Assembly: GCF_053078305.1 (NCBI RefSeq)
Contig: NZ_CP166879.1
Length of the DNA stretch: 64,000 nucleotides
Strand: one strand, 5' to 3'
Positions 19,663 through 37,292 of the stretch are shown here, in pieces (position 1 is the stretch's first letter; each line of letters opens with the position of its first letter). Below the pieces are notes generated by a model that was not told where the DNA came from, did not search any database, and saw nothing but the letters and a program-made list of their open reading frames with translations. The translations under genes and the position numbers were made by a program.

Positions 19663-19752
19663 GACGCTCCCTTTGTTGGGCCTTTACTGAATTAACGCAA
19701 AATGGCGTTTATCGGTCTGTGGATATGATAATTCTGTTTATTCAGGAACAGG

Positions 19753-21810
19753 ATGAATATTATGACGTCCAAATGGGTTCAACTATCATCAATGCCCGGA
19801 AACTTTACCGTTAAAGTTTCCGGTGGTACAGCGGCATTTCTTGAGGCTCCTTTTCCTCCGGCTGAAACGAAAGGAGGAATGACATTTGCTGACTGTCTCA
19901 TCAGTTTTAATACACAGGATTGCCTGTGGGTAAGGCCAGTATCCGGTGATCCGAACGTGGAAATTACCGGAGCGGGTATTGGTGCTGTCATTCCGTTAAG
20001 TGCTGATGTTGCCGGTACTACTGAACCGTCAGACTGGGATAATGCTGAAACACATACCCGTCCGGCAGGAAATGAAACGGCTTCCAGCTCCCCTTCCTGG
20101 TATTACGTGATTGTTATAGCCGGTCAGTCCAATGCTTCATCTTATGGTGAAGGGTTGCCCCTGCCGGATTCTTATGATCGTCCTGATCCACGTATTATGC
20201 AGCTGGCACGCAGGAATACACAAACCCCCGGAGGTATTCCCTGCAAATACAATGAAATCATTCCAGCAGATCACTGCCTTCATGATGTTCAGAATATGAG
20301 TCTGCTGAACCATCCAAAAGCAGACCTGAAAAAAGGGCAGTATGGTTGTGTGGGTCAGGGACTTCATATTGCGAAAAAAGTATTACCGGTGATTCCTGCT
20401 GATGCCGGGATTTTACTGGTTCCCTGTGCCCGTGGCGGCTCTGCTTTTACAACCGGCGCAGTTGGCTCATTCGATCCGGCAAGTGGTGCAGCCGAGGCGT
20501 CACTACGCTGGGGAGTGGATACCCCACTGTATCAGGATCTTGTCAGTCGAACGAAAGCGGCACTTGAGGCGAATCCAAAGAATGTGCTGTTATCTGTCGT
20601 ATGGATTCAGGGGGAAGGAGACCTTAAAGCGACCCCGGCCCAGCATGGTGCCCAGTTTACTGCGATGGTGAAAAAATTCCGTGCGGATCTTGGTGCTTTC
20701 TCCGGTCAGTGTATTGGTGGTTCATCAGACAGTGTGCCGTGGTTATGTGGTGACACAACCTATGACTGGAAAGAGAAGAACCCGGCGGCATATGAAACCA
20801 TTTATAGCGGATATAAAAACCGGGCTTCCGAGAACATTCACTTTGTTCCACTGATGCACGATGAGTTCGGTAATAAAACCGCGACCAACCTGCCGGAGCA
20901 CGACCCGGATATCGCTTCTGCCGGGTATTATGGTGCGGAATCACGGGGAGATGGCAACTGGACAACAGCATCCAGGGCAACCCATTTTAGCTCCTGGGCG
21001 CGCCGTTTTCTGGTCTCAGATCGTTTTGCATCAGCAATTCTTAAATATGCAGGTCTGACCTCTGCATTTATTGCCGGTGTGGCCCCTGATGGTGAAGCCC
21101 TGCCTCAGCCCGCGCCGGGTGGAAAACCGGAAGCTCCGACAGGTAGTCAGCCAGGAAGCAGTGAGTCCCCCCAGCCGACATCCCCGTCACTCCGTACGCT
21201 GCTTTCACTTAAAGCATCAGCAGGGGAAGCCCCGGCTCAGGGATGGAAAATTACAGATGGTACAATCCAGCTGACGGACGAAGGTAAAGCGCTGACCGTA
21301 TCCAAACAAAGCGGAAAAACCTGGTCACTTACCCATGCGACCAGTGCTGCCGGAGAGCTGTTGCAGCATGGTGGTCAGTTGACCTGTAAATTCCGTCTGT
21401 CAGGTGAAGTAAAAGAAGGCCAGTTTGCTCTGGGTATTTACCTCCACACCGATACGGTCCCGGAAGGTGTAACCATGAGTGGTACAGGCACACCGTTCCT
21501 GATGGCGTATTATCTCCAGACAACAGGCGGCCAGTTAAATCTGATGCACCATAAAACAGGGGGGAATACGAAACTGGGATCATTTGGAGCCTACAATAAC
21601 CAGTGGCATACACTTGTCCTGAAGTTTACGGCGGGAAGTGCCCAGGTAACGCCTGTGCTGGATGGCACTCCGGGCCAGGCATTCCAGATGGTGAAAGATG
21701 CACTTTCCCCTGCCAAAGATACGCTGACACTGACAGATGTCACCAAAGGGGCAACTTATGGCGTGTCTTTTGAGAGCGTTGTCCTTGAGGTTAATACCCC
21801 TGCGGCATAA
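19753..21810 (+). CDS. SASA/DUF303-type carbohydrate esterase with C-terminal beta-sandwich (lectin-like) domain; accessory gene
   Basis: 685-aa ORF; GQSN motif (IAGQSNASSYGEG) about 120 aa from the N-terminus, typical of sialate-O-acetylesterase-like SGNH enzymes. No obvious signal peptide. Not part of the Mu core. Confidence 0.6.
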   Translation: MNIMTSKWVQLSSMPGNFTVKVSGGTAAFLEAPFPPAETKGGMTFADCLISFNTQDCLWVRPVSGDPNVEITGAGIGAVIPLSADVAGTTEPSDWDNAETHTRPAGNETASSSPSWYYVIVIAGQSNASSYGEGLPLPDSYDRPDPRIMQLARRNTQTPGGIPCKYNEIIPADHCLHDVQNMSLLNHPKADLKKGQYGCVGQGLHIAKKVLPVIPADAGILLVPCARGGSAFTTGAVGSFDPASGAAEASLRWGVDTPLYQDLVSRTKAALEANPKNVLLSVVWIQGEGDLKATPAQHGAQFTAMVKKFRADLGAFSGQCIGGSSDSVPWLCGDTTYDWKEKNPAAYETIYSGYKNRASENIHFVPLMHDEFGNKTATNLPEHDPDIASAGYYGAESRGDGNWTTASRATHFSSWARRFLVSDRFASAILKYAGLTSAFIAGVAPDGEALPQPAPGGKPEAPTGSQPGSSESPQPTSPSLRTLLSLKASAGEAPAQGWKITDGTIQLTDEGKALTVSKQSGKTWSLTHATSAAGELLQHGGQLTCKFRLSGEVKEGQFALGIYLHTDTVPEGVTMSGTGTPFLMAYYLQTTGGQLNLMHHKTGGNTKLGSFGAYNNQWHTLVLKFTAGSAQVTPVLDGTPGQAFQMVKDALSPAKDTLTLTDVTKGATYGVSFESVVLEVNTPAA

Positions 21811-21867
21811 TCGTGACGGCCGGGAATTTATCCGGCTGTAACATCAGTTAATAAGAGTGAGGCTTAT

Positions 21868-22047
21868 ATGACATATATAAACGTCTGCCTGCTGTATTTC
21901 TGCACGGTGGTTTGTTGTCTGTTGCTTGTCAGCGGTGGTTATAAAATTATTCGCAATTATTTTCGAAATAAAATTGATGCAGCTGCCGAGGAAAAGATAA
22001 AAAGCGGTGCTGTAATGCCGCAGCCGAAAGACTCCGGTCAGATTTAA
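21868..22047 (+). CDS. Small hydrophobic (probable membrane) peptide, 59 aa
   Basis: ATG with SD GAGTGAGG; N-terminus VCLLYFCTVVCCLLLV is strongly hydrophobic. Below the ORF-track length cutoff. Confidence 0.4.
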   Translation: MTYINVCLLYFCTVVCCLLLVSGGYKIIRNYFRNKIDAAAEEKIKSGAVMPQPKDSGQI

Positions 22048-22082
22048 TTTTTTGTGAACCAGAAAAGGAAAGGAGAATATTC

Positions 22083-22328
22083 ATGCCAGAGATTAAAGGC
22101 ACGGTTACTGAAGAGCTTGTCAAACAGGCACTTTATTCTGAAGAAGTGAACCGCGTGCTGAAGGCGCAGGTTCGCAAGGATTTTGAGGCACAAATCGACG
22201 CATATGTTGATGAAGTGCTGGCCCGAATGGTTGGCCATTCTCCGGCTGAAAACAGCACGGAGAATGAGCCTCAGCCCGTAGAGCAACCAGAGCCGGTTCA
22301 GCCCGGAACTGACAGTGCCATGATGTAA
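22083..22328 (+). CDS. Hypothetical acidic protein, 81 aa
   Basis: Strong SD (AAAGGAAAGGAGA) 6 nt upstream of the ATG. Confidence 0.45.
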   Translation: MPEIKGTVTEELVKQALYSEEVNRVLKAQVRKDFEAQIDAYVDEVLARMVGHSPAENSTENEPQPVEQPEPVQPGTDSAMM

Positions 22329-22402
22329 CAATACAAACCGACAGCTTCTCCTGTCGGTTTGATTTTCATGGGCGATGTATATACCAGTCAGAGGAAATAA
22401 TC

Positions 22403-22603
22403 ATGGACAAGAACAAAAAGCAGCCCGATACCAAAGGTCTGGAAATATTAAGCGCAGAAATTATCAATGCGCTACGTTCAGGACTTGATGAAAATACATT
22501 ACAGGATCGAAACTTCACCACTGCAATGTGGATAGCGATGCAGATCCTGTGTACCCCAAGATGCGCTATTTTTGCGGTTCGTGAGGGTCAGTTGACTCGC
22601 TGA
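22403..22603 (+). CDS. Hypothetical protein, 66 aa
   Basis: ORF with SD-like AGAGGAAA upstream. Confidence 0.4.
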   Translation: MDKNKKQPDTKGLEILSAEIINALRSGLDENTLQDRNFTTAMWIAMQILCTPRCAIFAVREGQLTR

Positions 22604-22772
22604 TTGCCCGAATTACATCAGAAAAGCACGCGTTCCATAATTGCATAGCTGATGAATCACCAGCTGTATGAAAAGAGGTAAAGACACAACTGGTGGATGT
22701 CATTGCTGCAATTGTGATATCAGCTGCAATTCGCGCAGCCTGTAACTTTTGGTCGGTGGTCAGTTTATCCAT
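22566..22772 (-). CDS. Hypothetical small protein, 68 aa (convergent with and overlapping the previous ORF)
   Basis: Minus-strand ORF; internal ATG (MDKLTTDQK...) preceded by AGGAGA. Confidence 0.3.
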   Translation of the reverse strand: MDKLTTDQKLQAARIAADITIAAMTSTSCVFTSFHTAGDSSAMQLWNACFSDVIRAISESTDPHEPQK

Positions 22773-22845
22773 TTTCTCCTGCCTGAACAGATGCATCTCT
22801 GCTTTACAGGAGGCCGGGGAATATCATAGGATACACCACGAGCTC

Positions 22846-23000
22846 AGAGTGAAGCATTGATGCAGTTTTTTACAGATTGACCCAGAATAGTTCGCGCTAT
22901 CTGAGTCGCCATTTATGTAGTCCCGAAGTAAAGCATTGATGCAAACTTGTCTAAATCGGCCCAGCATAGTTCCAGCTATGCTGGGTTTCCCTTTTATGTA
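22846..23000. repeat. Two tandem ~77-bp direct repeat units, each with AAGCATTGATGCA box plus hairpin plus TTTATGTAGT
   Basis: Copy 2 contains a perfect 10-bp inverted repeat CCCAGCATAG/CTATGCTGGG followed by a T-rich run; copy 1 is a degenerate version. Confidence 0.6.
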
Positions 23001-23184
23001 GTATCCTGTTGATTTGAAACATACTACATATACGCGCGATCCTACCTTCACTGGATAAAAAGTCAATAAAATGATCATTTTATGATCGTTTTCACCACCT
23101 AACTCTTCGTTTTCTTTAAGTAAATAATCACCGCCCTGAATCATTGTTGATGACTTTTCAATCTATTTGTTGTATCAATTAAAC

Positions 23185-23215
23185 AAATCGAATCGATCGT
23201 TTTTGTCGATCGATT
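23185..23215 (+). promoter_or_regulatory. GATC cluster upstream of com (putative Dam/OxyR-controlled mom promoter region)
   Basis: GATC at 23195 and 23208 within a short dyad; further GATC at 23038, 23073, 23084. Confidence 0.45.
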
Positions 23216-23258
23216 GCATGAGAAAGGCATCAACAACAAAGCAGGAGGTTATGCGGCC

Positions 23259-23459
23259 ATGTATCGAAACATACGGTGCCGACACTGCAATAAGCTACTG
23301 GCACGGGCCAGTTTCAGTTATCTGGAAGTAAAATGTCCGCGCTGTAAAACCCTCAATCAAATCACATCTCCGAGCGCCACAGAGCACCCCACATACACAA
23401 GGAAATCCTGTCGTGGGGAACAGAAAGCAAGTCACATCCCGTATCATCAGCACGCCTGA
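23259..23459 (+). CDS. com: Com zinc-finger translational activator of mom
   Basis: Motif [29 protein letters not shown]...EHPT aligns with the Mu Com C4 zinc finger as recalled; SD GCAGGAGG 10 nt upstream of the ATG at 23259. Confidence 0.75.
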
Positions 23460-24150
23460 ACTTATTCGCTATAACGACAATATCGTTGGTTATGGTTCCC
23501 GTGAGTTGCGGGTTGAGACAATAAGTTGCTGGCTGGCCAGACTGGTTATCGTCAATAAACATTACAGCCACCGTTTCGTAAATAACTCCTACCTTCATCT
23601 GGGCATATTTTCAGAACGGGAACTTGTTGGCGTAATGCAATGGGGTTACGCCCTTAACCCAAACAGTGGTGCACGCGTCGTAACGGGTACGCAGAACCGA
23701 GAATATATGGAGCTGAACCGGCTATGGATGCATGACTGTATGCCGAGAAACTCCGAATCAAGGGCAATCAGTTACGCGCTCAAGCTAATCAGGCAGCTTT
23801 ATCCGCAGGTACAGTGGGTTCAGTCGTTTGCAGATGAGCGTTGTGGCTGTCTTGGTGTCGTGTATCAGGCAAGCAATTTTGATTATGTAGGCAGCCATGA
23901 AACAATATTCTATGAACTTGATGGCGAGTGGTATCACGAGATTTGCAGGAATGCCATTAAACGAGGCGGACAACGAGGTGAACATCTGAGGGCTAATATC
24001 GACAGAGCCAGTGTGCATAAGTTCCGACAGTTTCGTTACATCCGGTTTCTGAACAAGAGGGCCAGAAAACGCCTCAACACAAAGCTATTCAAAGTCCAGC
24101 CTTACCCAAAACCACAAACAGTTAAAACTGGTTTGAAAGAGAGTGAATGA
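23413..24150 (+). CDS. mom: Mom-like DNA modification protein
   Basis: 245-aa ORF overlapping the com 3' end, last gene before the prophage right end as in Mu; start codon uncertain. Confidence 0.65.
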
Positions 24151-24295
24151 GCGCTTAAAAACTCATTCTAAAACTCAAAAGAAAAGCGCCGATTTAGTAT
24201 CAAATAAGTTGCGTATCGGCGTTTTTCAGCGGTATCAAATGAAATGCAAATCGGTATCAAAAAAATCGCCGCGCTATATGCCGCTGACCACAGCA
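24150..24295. other. Mu-like prophage right end (transposase-binding repeats) and junction with lambdoid Z remnant
   Basis: Repeated CGGTATC / GCGTTTTTCAGCGG motifs resembling MuA end-binding sites; sequence ends ...ACCACA (terminal CA) just before lambda-like coding sequence resumes. Confidence 0.35.
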
Positions 24296-24391
24296 TTTAA
24301 ACAGAATATTGAACGTATCCGGCGTGAACGCCTGCCAGAAGAACTGGCATATGCGCTGAAACAACAACTGAGGATTGCGATAAAACGATGA
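24296..24391 (+). pseudogene. 3' fragment of lambda Z-like tail gene, disrupted by the Mu-like insertion
   Basis: Short reading frame ending in ATGA overlap with the U start, as at a lambda Z/U junction; no N-terminal part present. Confidence 0.4.
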
Positions 24392-24783
24392 AACATACTG
24401 ATATCCGTGCAGCCGTACTGGATGCACTGGAGAAGCATGACACCGGGGCGACGCTGTTTGATGGTCGCCCCGCTGTTTTTGAGGAGGCGGATTTTCCGGC
24501 GGTCGCGGTTTATCTGACGGATGCAGAGTATACCGGTGAAGAGCTGGATGCTGATACCTGGCGGGCCACACTGCATATTGAGGTGTTTTTACCGGCACAG
24601 GTACCGGATTCAGAGCTTGATCAGTGGATGGAAAGCCGGATTTACCCGGCGATGGCGGCGATCCCTGCACTGGCAGGCATGATTACCACGATGGTTACGC
24701 AGGGCTATGAGTATCGTCGTGATGACGATATGGCATTGTGGAGCTCTGCAGATCTGACTTATTCCATTACATACGAGATGTGA
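24388..24783 (+). CDS. U: Minor tail protein U
   Basis: 131 aa, near-identical to lambda gpU as recalled ([22 protein letters not shown]...). Confidence 0.9.
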
Positions 24784-24790
24784 GGATGAT

Positions 24791-25540
24791 ATGGCAACAC
24801 CAAATCCCCTGGCGCCGGTAAAAGGTTCCGGCACCACGCTCTGGGTTTACACCGGTAAGGGCGATGCTTATGCAAACCCGCTGTCAGATGATGAGTGGAC
24901 GCGTCTGGCAAAAATAAAGGATCTGACCCCCGGCGAGATGACGGCGGAATCCTACGACGATAACTATCTGGATGATGAGGATGCTGACTGGGTATCCACC
25001 GGGCAGGGGCAGAAATCTGCCGGTGACACCAGTTTTACGCTGGCCTGGAAGCCCGGCGAGAAAGGGCAGCGTGATTTGATTGCCTGGTTTGACAGCAGTG
25101 AGACCCGGGCCTACAAAATCCGCTTCCCGAACGGTACGGTGGATGTGTTCCGTGGCTGGGTGAGCGCCATTGGTAAAGCGGTGACTGCCAAAGAAGTGAT
25201 TACCCGTACGGTAAAAATCACCAATATTGGTCGTCCGTCGCTGGCGGAGGATCGGGGAGAAATCACACCGGTCACCGGTATTACCGTGACGCCACTAACG
25301 GGGAATGTGGCAAAAGGTCAGAGCACCACCCTGACTGTGGCCGTTCAGCCGGAAGGCGCAACGGATAAAACATTCCGCGCAACGTCGGCAAATCAGAATT
25401 TCGCCACCATTACCGTGAAAGGGAACACGATCACCGTGAAAGGTGTTGCGGCAGGTAAAGCGCAGATCCCTGTTGTCACCGGCAACGGTGAGTTTGCGGC
25501 GGTGGCGGAGATCACCGTTACGGATGGCGCTGCGGGCTGA
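24791..25540 (+). CDS. V: Major tail protein V (with C-terminal Ig-like domain)
   Basis: 249 aa, lambda V-like N-terminus. Confidence 0.9.
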
Positions 25541-35558: not shown

Positions 35559-37292
35559 ATGACAGTCAGAATATCGGGTGTGCTGAAGGATGGTACGGGA
35601 AAAGCGGTACCGGGATGCACGATAGAGCTGAAAGCGCGCCGCACAACGGAGACGGTGATTGTCACCACGGTGGCGTATGGTCAGCCGGGGGAAACCGGCA
35701 GTTACAGTATGGATGTTGAGCCGGGGTTGTACCGGGTGACGCTGAACACGGAAGGGTACGCGCCGTCATATGTGGGTGACATTCTGGTGAAGGCGGATTC
35801 TGCACCGGGAACGCTGAATAAATTTCTGATGGACCTGGAAGACGCACAGTATTACCCGAAAGCCCTTGCAGAGCTGGAAGCGGTGGCAGCGGAAATCCTG
35901 AAGCGTGCAGAAGCGTCAGCGGCCAGTGCAGAGGAAGCGAAGAAACGGGCAGAGAATGCGCGGGGACCGAAGGGGGATAAGGGAGACACCGGGCCACAGG
36001 GGATTCCCGGGCCAAAAGGCGATACCGGCGAGCGGGGGCCAAAGGGTGAGCGTGGTGAGACAGGGCCACAGGGGCTTCAGGGTGTGAAAGGTGAACGGGG
36101 AGAGAAGGGCGAAAAAGGCGAGCCGGGAGGGCCGGATGCGACGACGGCACAGAAGGGAATTGTGCAGTTAAGCAGCGCAACGGACAGTGATGATGAAACG
36201 AAGGCAGCCACGCCGAAAGCGGTGAAAGCGGCAATGGACAAAGCGGACGGATGCCTGGAGAAAGCGAAAAACGGTGACGATATCCCGGATAAGGTGAAGT
36301 TTCTGAACACCGTGGGAGCAGCCAGAGTATACGGGCGGGACATTCATACGGGGGCCGGTGAATGGACCACGAGTGAGTTTGTCGCCTGGCTGAAAGAAAA
36401 AGGGGCATTTGACCAGCCTTACTGGATGATGAAGGCATCACTGCTTGCGTCAATGAATAAAGTCATCACAGATGTCGGACCGGGAAAACTCAATCTGGGT
36501 GGCTGTGTCATTGAGGTGATGGGAACGTATGAGGCTGCCATAGTCCGGGTCACCATTGGCGAATACGGTGCAACGGGGTTTATTAATGGCACGGTCTGTA
36601 CCTGTACGGTTTACGGCGACACACAGTATTTCCACTGGCGGGTGGATTACAGCACAAAAAACAAACCGGATACGGTCAGCCAGCGGGATGCCAGTACGAC
36701 GCAGAAAGGTGTGGTGCAGTTAAGCAGTGATACTGGCAGTAATGACGAAACAAAGGCAGCCACGCCGAAGGCCGTGAAGGCGGCAATGGATGTGGCAAAT
36801 GAAGCGAAAACAAAGGCAGAAGAGGCTGCAGCAGGAGGTGGTGTTCCCGGTCCGAAAGGAGAGAAAGGTGACCCCGGAGCACAGGGTCCGAAAGGTGAAA
36901 CGGGAGCAACAGGCCCCGCTGGTCCGCGGGGAGCGCAGGGACCGAAAGGGGAGAAAGGCGACCCCGGTCCCAGAGGTGAGCGTGGAGAAACCGGGCCGAT
37001 GGGGCCGCCGGGGGCATCAGGAGATGACGGGAAGAGTCGTGTCATGGGCTTCAGGCTGGGGAATCCGGTAACGTATGAGTTGCAGGAGGGGGACCATGGC
37101 TGGTCAGTTAATCTGGCTGATGGTTCAGTCATTACAGGGCTTTCGGGGAACACTCAGGGCGGCGTCAGCCGTGTTACAACGATTTACTACAGGCCGCTGC
37201 AGATGACGTTTGATGGCTCTCACTGGCGCACCGTTGGTGTTGGTGAGTATGTGTCGTCAGGAGCGCCGGGGCGTGAGTATTTTTCATTATAA
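35559..37292 (+). CDS. stf: Side tail fibre protein with two collagen-like Gly-X-Y tracts
   Basis: 577 aa; [37 protein letters not shown] and a second GXY run. Confidence 0.85.

Follow-up and report, generated by a model that had tools for sequence, protein, structure and literature searches.

A probable nanS-p cassette with a predicted lineage-specific N-terminal barrel in the gin-com interval of an Sp18-like Mu-type prophage

In phage Mu (AF083977), the gin gene stops at position 35673 and com starts at position 35768, and the 94 base pairs (bp) between them contain Pmom. The stretch analyzed here, 64,000 nucleotides of contig NZ_CP166879.1 and referred to as the window, carries a Mu-like prophage in which the same two genes are separated by approximately 3.6 kb (positions 19663 to 23258). 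Compared with the 94 bp of Mu, these 3.6 kb are therefore extra DNA. The locus raises the question of what this DNA encodes and whether it is a single unit. A first-pass annotation, made from the letters alone, described an accessory island with a SASA-type esterase, a small membrane peptide, three small open reading frames (ORFs), and a tandem hairpin repeat, and proposed that it might be an uncharacterised module for lysogenic conversion, superinfection exclusion, defence, or anti-defence, with a surface polysaccharide receptor as a possible target. All of the ORFs it listed, and the GQSN motif of the esterase, are present where it had placed them, and the 94-bp spacer of Mu supports its view that the island is accessory relative to Mu.

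In the reading that we consider probable, the interval has two parts. The larger part would be a cassette led by nanS-p, with a product that joins a lineage-specific N-terminal barrel, a predicted sialate 9-O-acetylesterase, and a lectin-like domain. The smaller part would be a separate slot of small genes that turns over quickly. The enzyme family and the cassette are both known, and what is new is the phage type and the N-terminal domain.

The 685-residue protein and the nanS-p cassette

The nanS-p ORF (19753-21810, plus strand) encodes 685 amino acids (aa) and carries GQSN at residues 124-127. Its SASA/SGNH esterase domain, residues ~115-435 (20095-21057, plus strand), is defined by PDB 3PT5, Pfam SASA, and the catalytic motifs. 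The C-terminal lectin-like jelly roll (DUF6645), defined by PDB 6YP6 and Pfam DUF6645, covers residues 481-685 and the stop codon (21193-21810, plus strand). In a search against solved structures, residues 108-432 match the NanS/YjhS structure 3PT5 (E 3.6e-110), and residues 481-682 match a C-terminal domain chain deposited as 'NanS-p', 6YP6 (E 1.2e-42). Pfam places SASA at residues 119-315 (E 7.5e-13) and DUF6645 at residues 537-647 (E 1.5e-25). These matches agree with the earlier description of a SASA-type esterase followed by a C-terminal lectin-like beta-sandwich. The protein also matches phrog_143 with E 1.5e-273, in an alignment that runs from residue 65 on. No ORF has a match in NCBIfam. 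A single-sequence AlphaFold2 (AF2) model of the whole protein was unusable (mean pLDDT, the predicted local distance difference test, 32.5) and was set aside.

The catalytic pair is composed of Ser126 in GQSN (block I) and His411 in RATH (block IV). These align with residues S30 and H312 of the NanS chain in 3PT5, which we take to be native Ser19 and His301, with a consistent offset. The GQSN serine and the His411 block are invariant in every Mu-type and lambdoid allele aligned. The possibility that the protein is a standard virion tail fibre with no enzymatic motif, raised in the first-pass annotation, is contradicted by this alignment, which confirms the catalytic motif. Neither the ORF translation nor Pfam gives a tail-fibre or tailspike architecture for the protein, and a weak match exists to the 'tail protein' family phrog_25867 (E 1e-6). 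No signal peptide-like hydrophobic stretch is present at the N-terminus. Ser/Pro-rich linkers with SSP-like motifs lie on both sides of the esterase domain.

By these homologies, the 685-aa protein is a member of the NanS-p-type sialate O-acetylesterase family. NanS-p alleles from prophages of EDL933 and O104:H4 are active on Neu5,9Ac2 and also de-O-acetylate mucin glycans, and the NanS-p C-terminal domain has been described as a lectin-like jelly roll (PMC8065619).

Two genes follow nanS-p on the same strand. The first (21868-22047, plus strand) encodes a hydrophobic protein of 59 aa, correctly recognised earlier as a small membrane peptide, which belongs to DUF1378 (Pfam E 1e-23; phrog_494, E 4e-29). 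The second (22083-22328, plus strand) encodes an acidic helical DUF826 protein of 81 aa (Pfam E 3e-15; phrog_311, E 9e-30). The nanS-p/DUF1378/DUF826 block closes with a strong terminator-like hairpin that has T-runs on both strands (22334-22361; 11-bp stem, -17 kcal/mol, z -3.7) and is also the left-hand limit of the variable slot described below. Homology to related prophages breaks at 22365.

The same block is found in the lambdoid phage 933W. There, the gene after nanS-p (L0105) is an unannotated DUF1378 ORF with 54% identity to the one in the window; a DUF826-like ORF inside L0106 and then the holin gene S come next, so that the trio occupies the interval from stx to the holin gene. Earlier work has also noted genes for DUF826 and DUF1378 in the nanS-p to S interval (PMC10462455). 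Because the gene order is the same in the window and in 933W, nanS-p, DUF1378, and DUF826 are taken as one cassette in two unrelated phage types. Judged by sequence, then, the island core at 19753-22361 is a three-gene nanS-p cassette common to lambdoid Shiga toxin (Stx) phages and Sp18-like Mu-type prophages. The label 'uncharacterised' is thus not appropriate for its main protein, as the NanS-p family has published enzymology and a solved C-terminal domain and the trio is that of 933W.

The N-terminal domain, allele exchange, and distribution

The N-terminal domain covers residues 1-100 (19753-20052, plus strand) with a folded core at residues ~6-82. It is predicted to be an all-beta, cupin-like barrel and stands in place of DUF1737. 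In gp84 of phage phi24B, a NanS-p homologue, DUF1737 is reported to be the capsid anchor and to fix the protein as a hexamer on the capsid hexons, and the fold of the domain is described as a helix and three strands (preprint 10.64898/2026.04.10.717836). DUF1737 of 933W spans residues 3-53. In the 685-aa protein, Pfam gives no DUF1737 match even at E <= 10 and nothing at all in the first 118 residues. The first ~100 residues are only 6-13% identical to the N-termini of the 933W and JLK-2012 proteins. An AF2 model built with a nine-sequence alignment gives a confident all-beta core, with block-mean pLDDT of 81-89 over residues 11-70. Fold searches with this domain returned only generic cupin-like barrels and no known virion-binding relative. 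The N-terminus is the new part of the protein, a modelled beta-barrel of ~80 residues instead of the capsid-binding DUF1737.

The domain is rare. A tblastn search of 50,697 phage records gave 2 matches, both in records of a Mu-like phage inserted in an Stx phage and both located in a 'region of the inserted Bacteriophage Mu-like phage'. When 1.84 billion representative proteins were searched exhaustively, five matches came up, three of which are fragments that run into a NanS-like GQSN start or lie directly after a gin/resolvase gene; one of the other two is a 26-aa fragment and one is apparently spurious. A word-indexed homologue search returned only fragments of the same protein. The exhaustive search also returned a 1445-aa repeat protein, which was judged to be a low-complexity artefact. 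One of its five matches is a Salmonella protein with 28% identity, encoded after gin and Mu-type genes for baseplate and tail fibre; a counterpart in AFDB, also from Salmonella, has 777 aa. A hidden Markov model (HMM) of the domain found no paralogue among all six-frame ORFs of the window. Taken together, the barrel was found only in NanS-p of Mu-like prophages of Escherichia coli, Shigella, and Salmonella, in the gin-com slot. A distant Mu-like prophage of Salmonella enterica (L005, positions 7426-7910; GCA_037428405.1) has two small genes between gin and its nanS-like gene, one for a 58-aa tail-anchored membrane protein and one for an 87-aa protein similar to helix-turn-helix proteins.

Comparison of alleles shows that the domains of the protein have separate histories. 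Among type-A alleles, N-terminal domains are 94-98% identical, SASA domains 67%, and C-terminal domains 30-42%. The esterase domain of the window is 64-68% identical to the 933W and JLK-2012 alleles, and its C-terminal domain is 39-58% identical to theirs, the closest being that of phage JLK-2012 at 58%. The commonest Mu-type allele (locus L003) resembles 933W (80% identity in SASA and 82% in the C-terminal domain) more than it resembles the allele of the window. Compared as DNA, the window and this locus diverge from ~20821 to ~22068, a segment that holds the distal esterase, the lectin domain, and DUF1378, and they re-converge in DUF826. Divergence of the N-terminal domain (94-100, 55-60, and 29% identity) parallels that of gin (98, 81, and 67%). 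On these sequence comparisons, the esterase-lectin-DUF1378 segment has been exchanged with other nanS-p alleles, lambdoid ones included, and the N-terminal domain has stayed with the Mu-like backbone. Such a mosaic pattern shows direct gene flow between Mu-type and Stx phages in one cell.

The island was found by megablast in 232 of 5426 complete E. coli genomes (~4%), mostly of strains that make Shiga toxin (STEC). In the same set, the head genes of the prophage are present in 228 genomes and gin with the 90-bp spacer in 223. The island is sometimes located at more than one place per genome, with up to five matching places in some. Approximately 165 E. coli records at 80-90% identity were considered as lambdoid nanS-p loci and rejected, being Mu-like prophages with another allele. 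One copy that seemed to lack nanS-p carries a more divergent nanS-p. The N-terminal domain is also present in 34 IMG/VR contigs, all of which have a nanS-p ORF in a Mu-like setting. Most of these ORFs are intact (679-693 aa), and where the contig is long enough the genes run from tail fibre/G segment through (gin), nanS-p, DUF1378, DUF826, variable slot, and com to mom or a methyltransferase. The cassette is thus accessory relative to Mu and essentially fixed in the Sp18-like E. coli lineage. The earlier statement that these genes lie outside the Mu core stands in that they are absent from Mu and occur in only two phage records, and it needs amending for this lineage, in which they are a regular component.

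Copies on plasmids also occur. A 167-kb plasmid (NZ_CP074995.1) has the Mu-like region with the island, and an 89-kb plasmid (NZ_CP024617.1) has gin and the spacer. In NZ_CP024056.1, one Mu-type nanS-p copy is split by an IS1 element.

The variable slot, the com/mom control region, and the prophage borders

The segment from 22366 to 23144 is a separate, fast-turning-over slot of small genes beside the mom control region. Its first part is a variable cassette of 425 bp (22366-22790), delimited by blastn breakpoints against loci L001-L003, the ORF content of 13 loci, and the 34 viral contigs. Other Sp18-like prophages have alternatives at this place, either 190 bp that carry a 64-aa zinc-ribbon ORF or a segment whose ORF has ~97-100 aa. 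The former has the pattern CPxC...CPxC (L001, 11705-11899), and the latter is unrelated to it (L020, 8831-9124; L034, 8839-9141). The small variable ORFs have no Pfam or NCBIfam match, and a distant DNA search found no source for the cassette in the phage collection.

The cassette of the window contains two convergent ORFs that overlap by 38 bp. The first, orf66 (22403-22603, plus strand; 66 aa), has GAGGA 8 nucleotides 5' of its ATG. Against its counterpart in L021 it shows 11 synonymous and 3 non-synonymous differences, distributed 3/1/10 over the codon positions. It is annotated as a coding sequence by RefSeq in NZ_CP189662, and the only relatives found are close ones in E. coli. By this coding signal, orf66 is taken to be a genuine orphan protein-coding gene under purifying selection. 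The second, orf76m (22566-22796, minus strand; 76 aa), corresponds to the 68-aa ORF when read from an internal ATG. It has 7 synonymous versus 11 non-synonymous differences, distributed 4/5/9 over the codon positions, a weak third-position bias, and matches phrog_25148 over 25 residues only (E 1.4e-4). It is possibly coding.

To the right of the cassette is a frame-broken phrog_26524 gene (22824-23144, minus strand), which reads 106 aa to a TGA and matches profile positions 1-75 of 135. The gene is intact (135-154 aa) in L015, L036, and L014, and the L015 protein matches positions 1-135 with E 6e-95. RefSeq marks the region 'frameshifted'. Inside the gene are two 79-bp units (22848-22926 and 22927-23005), found by a repeat search and 75% identical over 53 nucleotides. 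Alignment gives two units in the window, L001, and L039, and one in L003, L009, L014, L015, L021, and L036. The second, divergent unit shifts the frame, and the gene is therefore broken in the three loci that have it. Tandem Repeats Finder did not report the repeat, as the copies are too divergent. Unit 2 folds strongly, into a hairpin with a 13-bp stem (about -21 kcal/mol, z -3.2); the hairpin of unit 1 is no better than that of shuffled sequence (z -0.6). Rfam has no match that would make the units a known RNA family. The tandem hairpin repeat of the first-pass annotation is therefore retained as two units, with a period of 79 bp rather than ~77 and a strong hairpin in unit 2 only. It is not an element of its own, being a copy-number polymorphism (1 or 2) inside a minus-strand gene.

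The cluster of four GATC sites upstream of com (23071-23215) aligns with the GATC-bearing gin-com spacer of Mu. It begins with an 11-bp tandem, ATGATCATTTT/ATGATCGTTTT (23071-23092), which falls within the beginning of the phrog_26524 ORF on the minus strand, and it ends with the inverted repeat AATCGATCG-N7-CGATCGATT (23191-23215). By analogy, the cluster is presumed to be a Dam/OxyR-type (Dam-sensitive) mom control region. The prophage part of the window, with the DNA upstream of nanS-p and com included, has no Mu C-box TTATN6ATAA, which in Mu itself is TTATGCCCCAATAA. The extent first given to the island needs correction on this side. An extra block is present, but its last ~190 bp (~23070-23258) are the com/mom control region, the counterpart of the Mu spacer, and not cargo.

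The slot is bordered on the right by com (23259-23459, plus strand; phrog_13819 gpCom, E 5e-13) and mom (23413-24150, plus strand; phrog_1384 Mom-like, E 9e-84). Many Sp18-like copies have, in the place of mom after com, a gene for a 350-aa C5 cytosine DNA methyltransferase (L002, 12439-13491; L003, 11429-12481; also L011, L017, and L038). They keep the com frame upstream of it, which suggests that Com controls an alternative gene for DNA modification.

The left border is gin (19102-19662, plus strand; phrog_125 DNA invertase, E 5e-94), the G-segment DNA invertase, of which the counterpart in 99%-identical loci is labeled 'recombinase family protein' by RefSeq. The gin-nanS-p spacer, by direct reading of the sequence, is 90 bp long (19663-19752, plus strand) and has a Shine-Dalgarno-like AGGA 5' of the ATG of the 685-aa ORF. 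No convincing promoter or terminator was found in this spacer by a consensus scan, which gave only 9/12 promoter-like matches at the background rate. Upstream of gin, PHROG searches identify tail fibre S (17130-18017) and a fibre assembly protein (17986-18618). The region 17130-19039 is an invertible G-like segment, with an inverted duplicate of the C-terminal part of the tail fibre at 18659-19039 (64% identity). Its last 39 bp (19001-19039) are an inverted match to a site that related prophages have in their tail-fibre region (L001, 6942-6980), and fibre alleles or orientations differ among related loci.

PHROG searches and homology to other copies show that positions 1 to ~24278 of the window are the late half of the Mu-like prophage. 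Homology to the other copies ends on the right at 24278/24279, which is also the annotated right end of 'Mu_JNE122137' in LC727895. Directly to the right are the C-terminal end of a lambdoid head-tail gene, a tail terminator gene (24388-24783), and a major tail protein gene (24791-25540), and lambdoid genes span 24279 to ~38000. The Mu-like phage is therefore inserted in a lambdoid prophage. This fits the finding that six of ten Sp18-like Mu phages of CC119 STEC are inserted in mobile elements (PMC10132054). The insertion, in the gene just upstream of the tail terminator, presumably inactivated tail assembly of the lambdoid prophage. ARAGORN found no tRNA in the window, and Rfam gave only a chance snoRNA match (E 0.56) between 19000 and 24500.

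Proposed function and comparison with known systems

Homology, motifs, gene order, distribution, and mosaicism were observed directly; what is said here on the substrate, the timing of expression, and the site of action is inferred. Judged from its homology with NanS and with the NanS-p alleles that have been tested, the 685-aa protein most likely removes the 9-O-acetyl group from Neu5,9Ac2, either free or on mucin glycans. The E. coli nan pathway could then use the de-O-acetylated sialic acids, and the C-terminal domain would direct the enzyme to glycans. As the N-terminus does not resemble a signal peptide, the protein would work in the cell, on release by lysis, or on virions. The Sp18-like lineage as a whole carries the cassette, with the esterase-lectin-DUF1378 segment swapped and the N-terminal domain kept. 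NanS-p is thought to open O-acetylated mucin sialic acids to enterohaemorrhagic E. coli (EHEC). The number of nanS-p alleles in a strain has been counted from lambdoid prophages, and the cassette of the window adds an allele on a transposable Mu-type phage. A literature search found no paper that links NanS-p with Sp18-like phages.

Some observations weigh against this proposal. Block IV reads RATH and not the commoner RSSH or RASH (variants of this SGNH block are RSSH, RASH, and RPTH; PMC10462455). The sugar site proposed for phi24B has four aromatic residues, of which Y563 and Y587 are kept, F558 is a change from Y to F, and the equivalent of F611 is lost; with RATH in block IV and one aromatic lost and one changed, the glycan specificity may be different. 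No late promoter could be assigned to nanS-p from the consensus and C-box scans. Lastly, Sp18 has been reported to be intact and not inducible by mitomycin, and the lysis-coupled release assumed for lambdoid NanS-p may therefore not apply.

The first alternative refines the reading of a NanS-p esterase cassette and does not contradict it. The N-terminal barrel would be an anchor that replaces DUF1737, and the esterase would be displayed on the capsid or tail, where it would bind sialoglycans of mucus and de-O-acetylate them, a role that has been proposed for gp84 of phi24B. The precedent is gp84 of phi24B, which decorates the capsid through DUF1737 (preprint 10.64898/2026.04.10.717836) and has similar SSP-like Ser/Pro-rich linkers around its esterase. 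In the window, the place of DUF1737 is taken by a domain that was found in no setting but Mu-like prophages, the divergence of this domain tracks the backbone while the cargo domains are swapped independently, and the gene is located at the end of the late, structural region. However, lambdoid alleles have no homology upstream of the esterase domain, so recombination mechanics alone could produce a conserved N-terminus. The fold matches are also generic, with no known virion-binding relative among them, and the domain has no paralogue elsewhere in the prophage. As recombination alone could explain the pattern, virion anchoring is kept as a tentative idea and not as a finding. The broader idea, that NanS-p is a modular virion-displayed esterase for mucus glycans which moves between phage types by exchange of its N-terminal anchor, is similarly speculative and somewhat doubtful. 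If it is true, the Sp18-like transposable phages of EHEC bear a sialate O-acetylesterase on their virions, and the barrel is a new family of Mu-type virion-binding domains. The recent claim that DUF1737 anchors the protein to capsids finds a natural experiment in the N-terminal swap. Should virions be bound by the Mu-specific barrel as well, display of the esterase would be a selected trait across phage morphotypes.

The second alternative, modification of a receptor or of the cell surface, is unlikely. The enzyme would remove O-acetyl groups from O-antigen, capsule, or sialic-acid-containing O-antigens, and would aid adsorption or exclude other phages. Such a role has been raised for NanS-p (PMC8065619). 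SGNH/SASA esterases occur in phage tail proteins, as seen in the weak phrog_25867 match, and nanS-p directly follows the tail-fibre/G-segment module. The variability of the lectin-like domain (30-42% identity between alleles) is what would be expected of a specificity determinant. However, the esterase is 64-68% identical to lambdoid NanS-p and matches NanS, both of which have been tested on 9-O-acetyl sialic acids, and its nearest characterised relatives work on sialoglycans of the host. The protein has no signal peptide-like N-terminus, its translation and Pfam matches give no sign of a tail-fibre or tailspike architecture, and the same alleles are present across serotypes O157, O26, O111, O103, and O91.

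A role of the small genes or of the whole island in defence, anti-defence, or superinfection exclusion, as first suggested, is less probable again. Alternative small cassettes between the DUF826 terminator and com are typical of moron or defence hotspots, and orf66 is under purifying selection. Against this, PADLOC gave 0 matches at E <= 0.1 for eight proteins, which cover the ORFs of the island and of the alternative cassettes, and the small variable ORFs lack family matches. The dominant gene of the island encodes an esterase of metabolic type, and one slot gene is broken in the copy of the window.

Least probable is that the island is inert cargo, a piece of some lambdoid late region that a Mu-like phage picked up a single time and that is now drifting: the synteny with lambdoid nanS-p regions, the frequent location of such phages inside lambdoid prophages (as in the window), and the decay on the right side (frameshifting duplication, truncated ORFs) would fit, but ORFs of 679-693 aa are full-length in most loci despite 30-68% divergence, the catalytic motifs are invariant, and ~230 genomes still have the cassette, as does a Salmonella lineage with only 29% identity in the N-terminal domain.

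The esterase cassette and its slot can be compared with four known systems. Mu and D108 have the same flanks as the window (G-segment tail fibres, gin, com, and mom) and GATC-rich DNA upstream of com. Mu differs in having 94 bp between gin and com and the C-box, where the window has 3.6 kb and no C-box.

Sp18 of O157:H7 Sakai and the CC119 Mu-like phages inserted in Stx phages (LC727881 and LC727895) are of the same lineage as the window and share its slot architecture. The LC727895 allele has an N-terminal domain 94-97% identical to that of the window. The Sp18 and CC119 copies have another allele (SASA 67%, C-terminal domain 39%, and DUF1378 59% identity). They also have a cytosine methyltransferase and not mom, a zinc-ribbon cassette and not orf66/orf76m, and one 79-bp unit and not two.

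Chromosomal NanS (YjhS, 3PT5) is homologous to the catalytic domain over its whole length, with an equivalent GQSN serine and histidine. It is a single domain of ~326 aa in the nan regulon, whereas the window protein is borne by a prophage and has 685 aa, three domains, and two linkers.

The closest known counterpart in domain content is the NanS-p of lambdoid phages (933W L0105/z1466; phi24B vb_24B_21/gp84), which shares the esterase, DUF6645, and the Ser/Pro-rich linkers with the window protein, and which in 933W is followed by DUF1378 and DUF826 in the same order. Some of the aromatic residues of the lambdoid sugar site are changed in the window. Lambdoid NanS-p begins with DUF1737, in contrast to the unrelated beta-barrel of ~80 residues in the window. 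The lambdoid gene lies between stx/Q and the holin gene, whereas that of the window belongs to a Mu-type transposable, myovirus-like prophage and has gin on one side and com/mom on the other; unlike its lambdoid counterpart, it is neither beside a lysis cassette nor under Q/pR' control.

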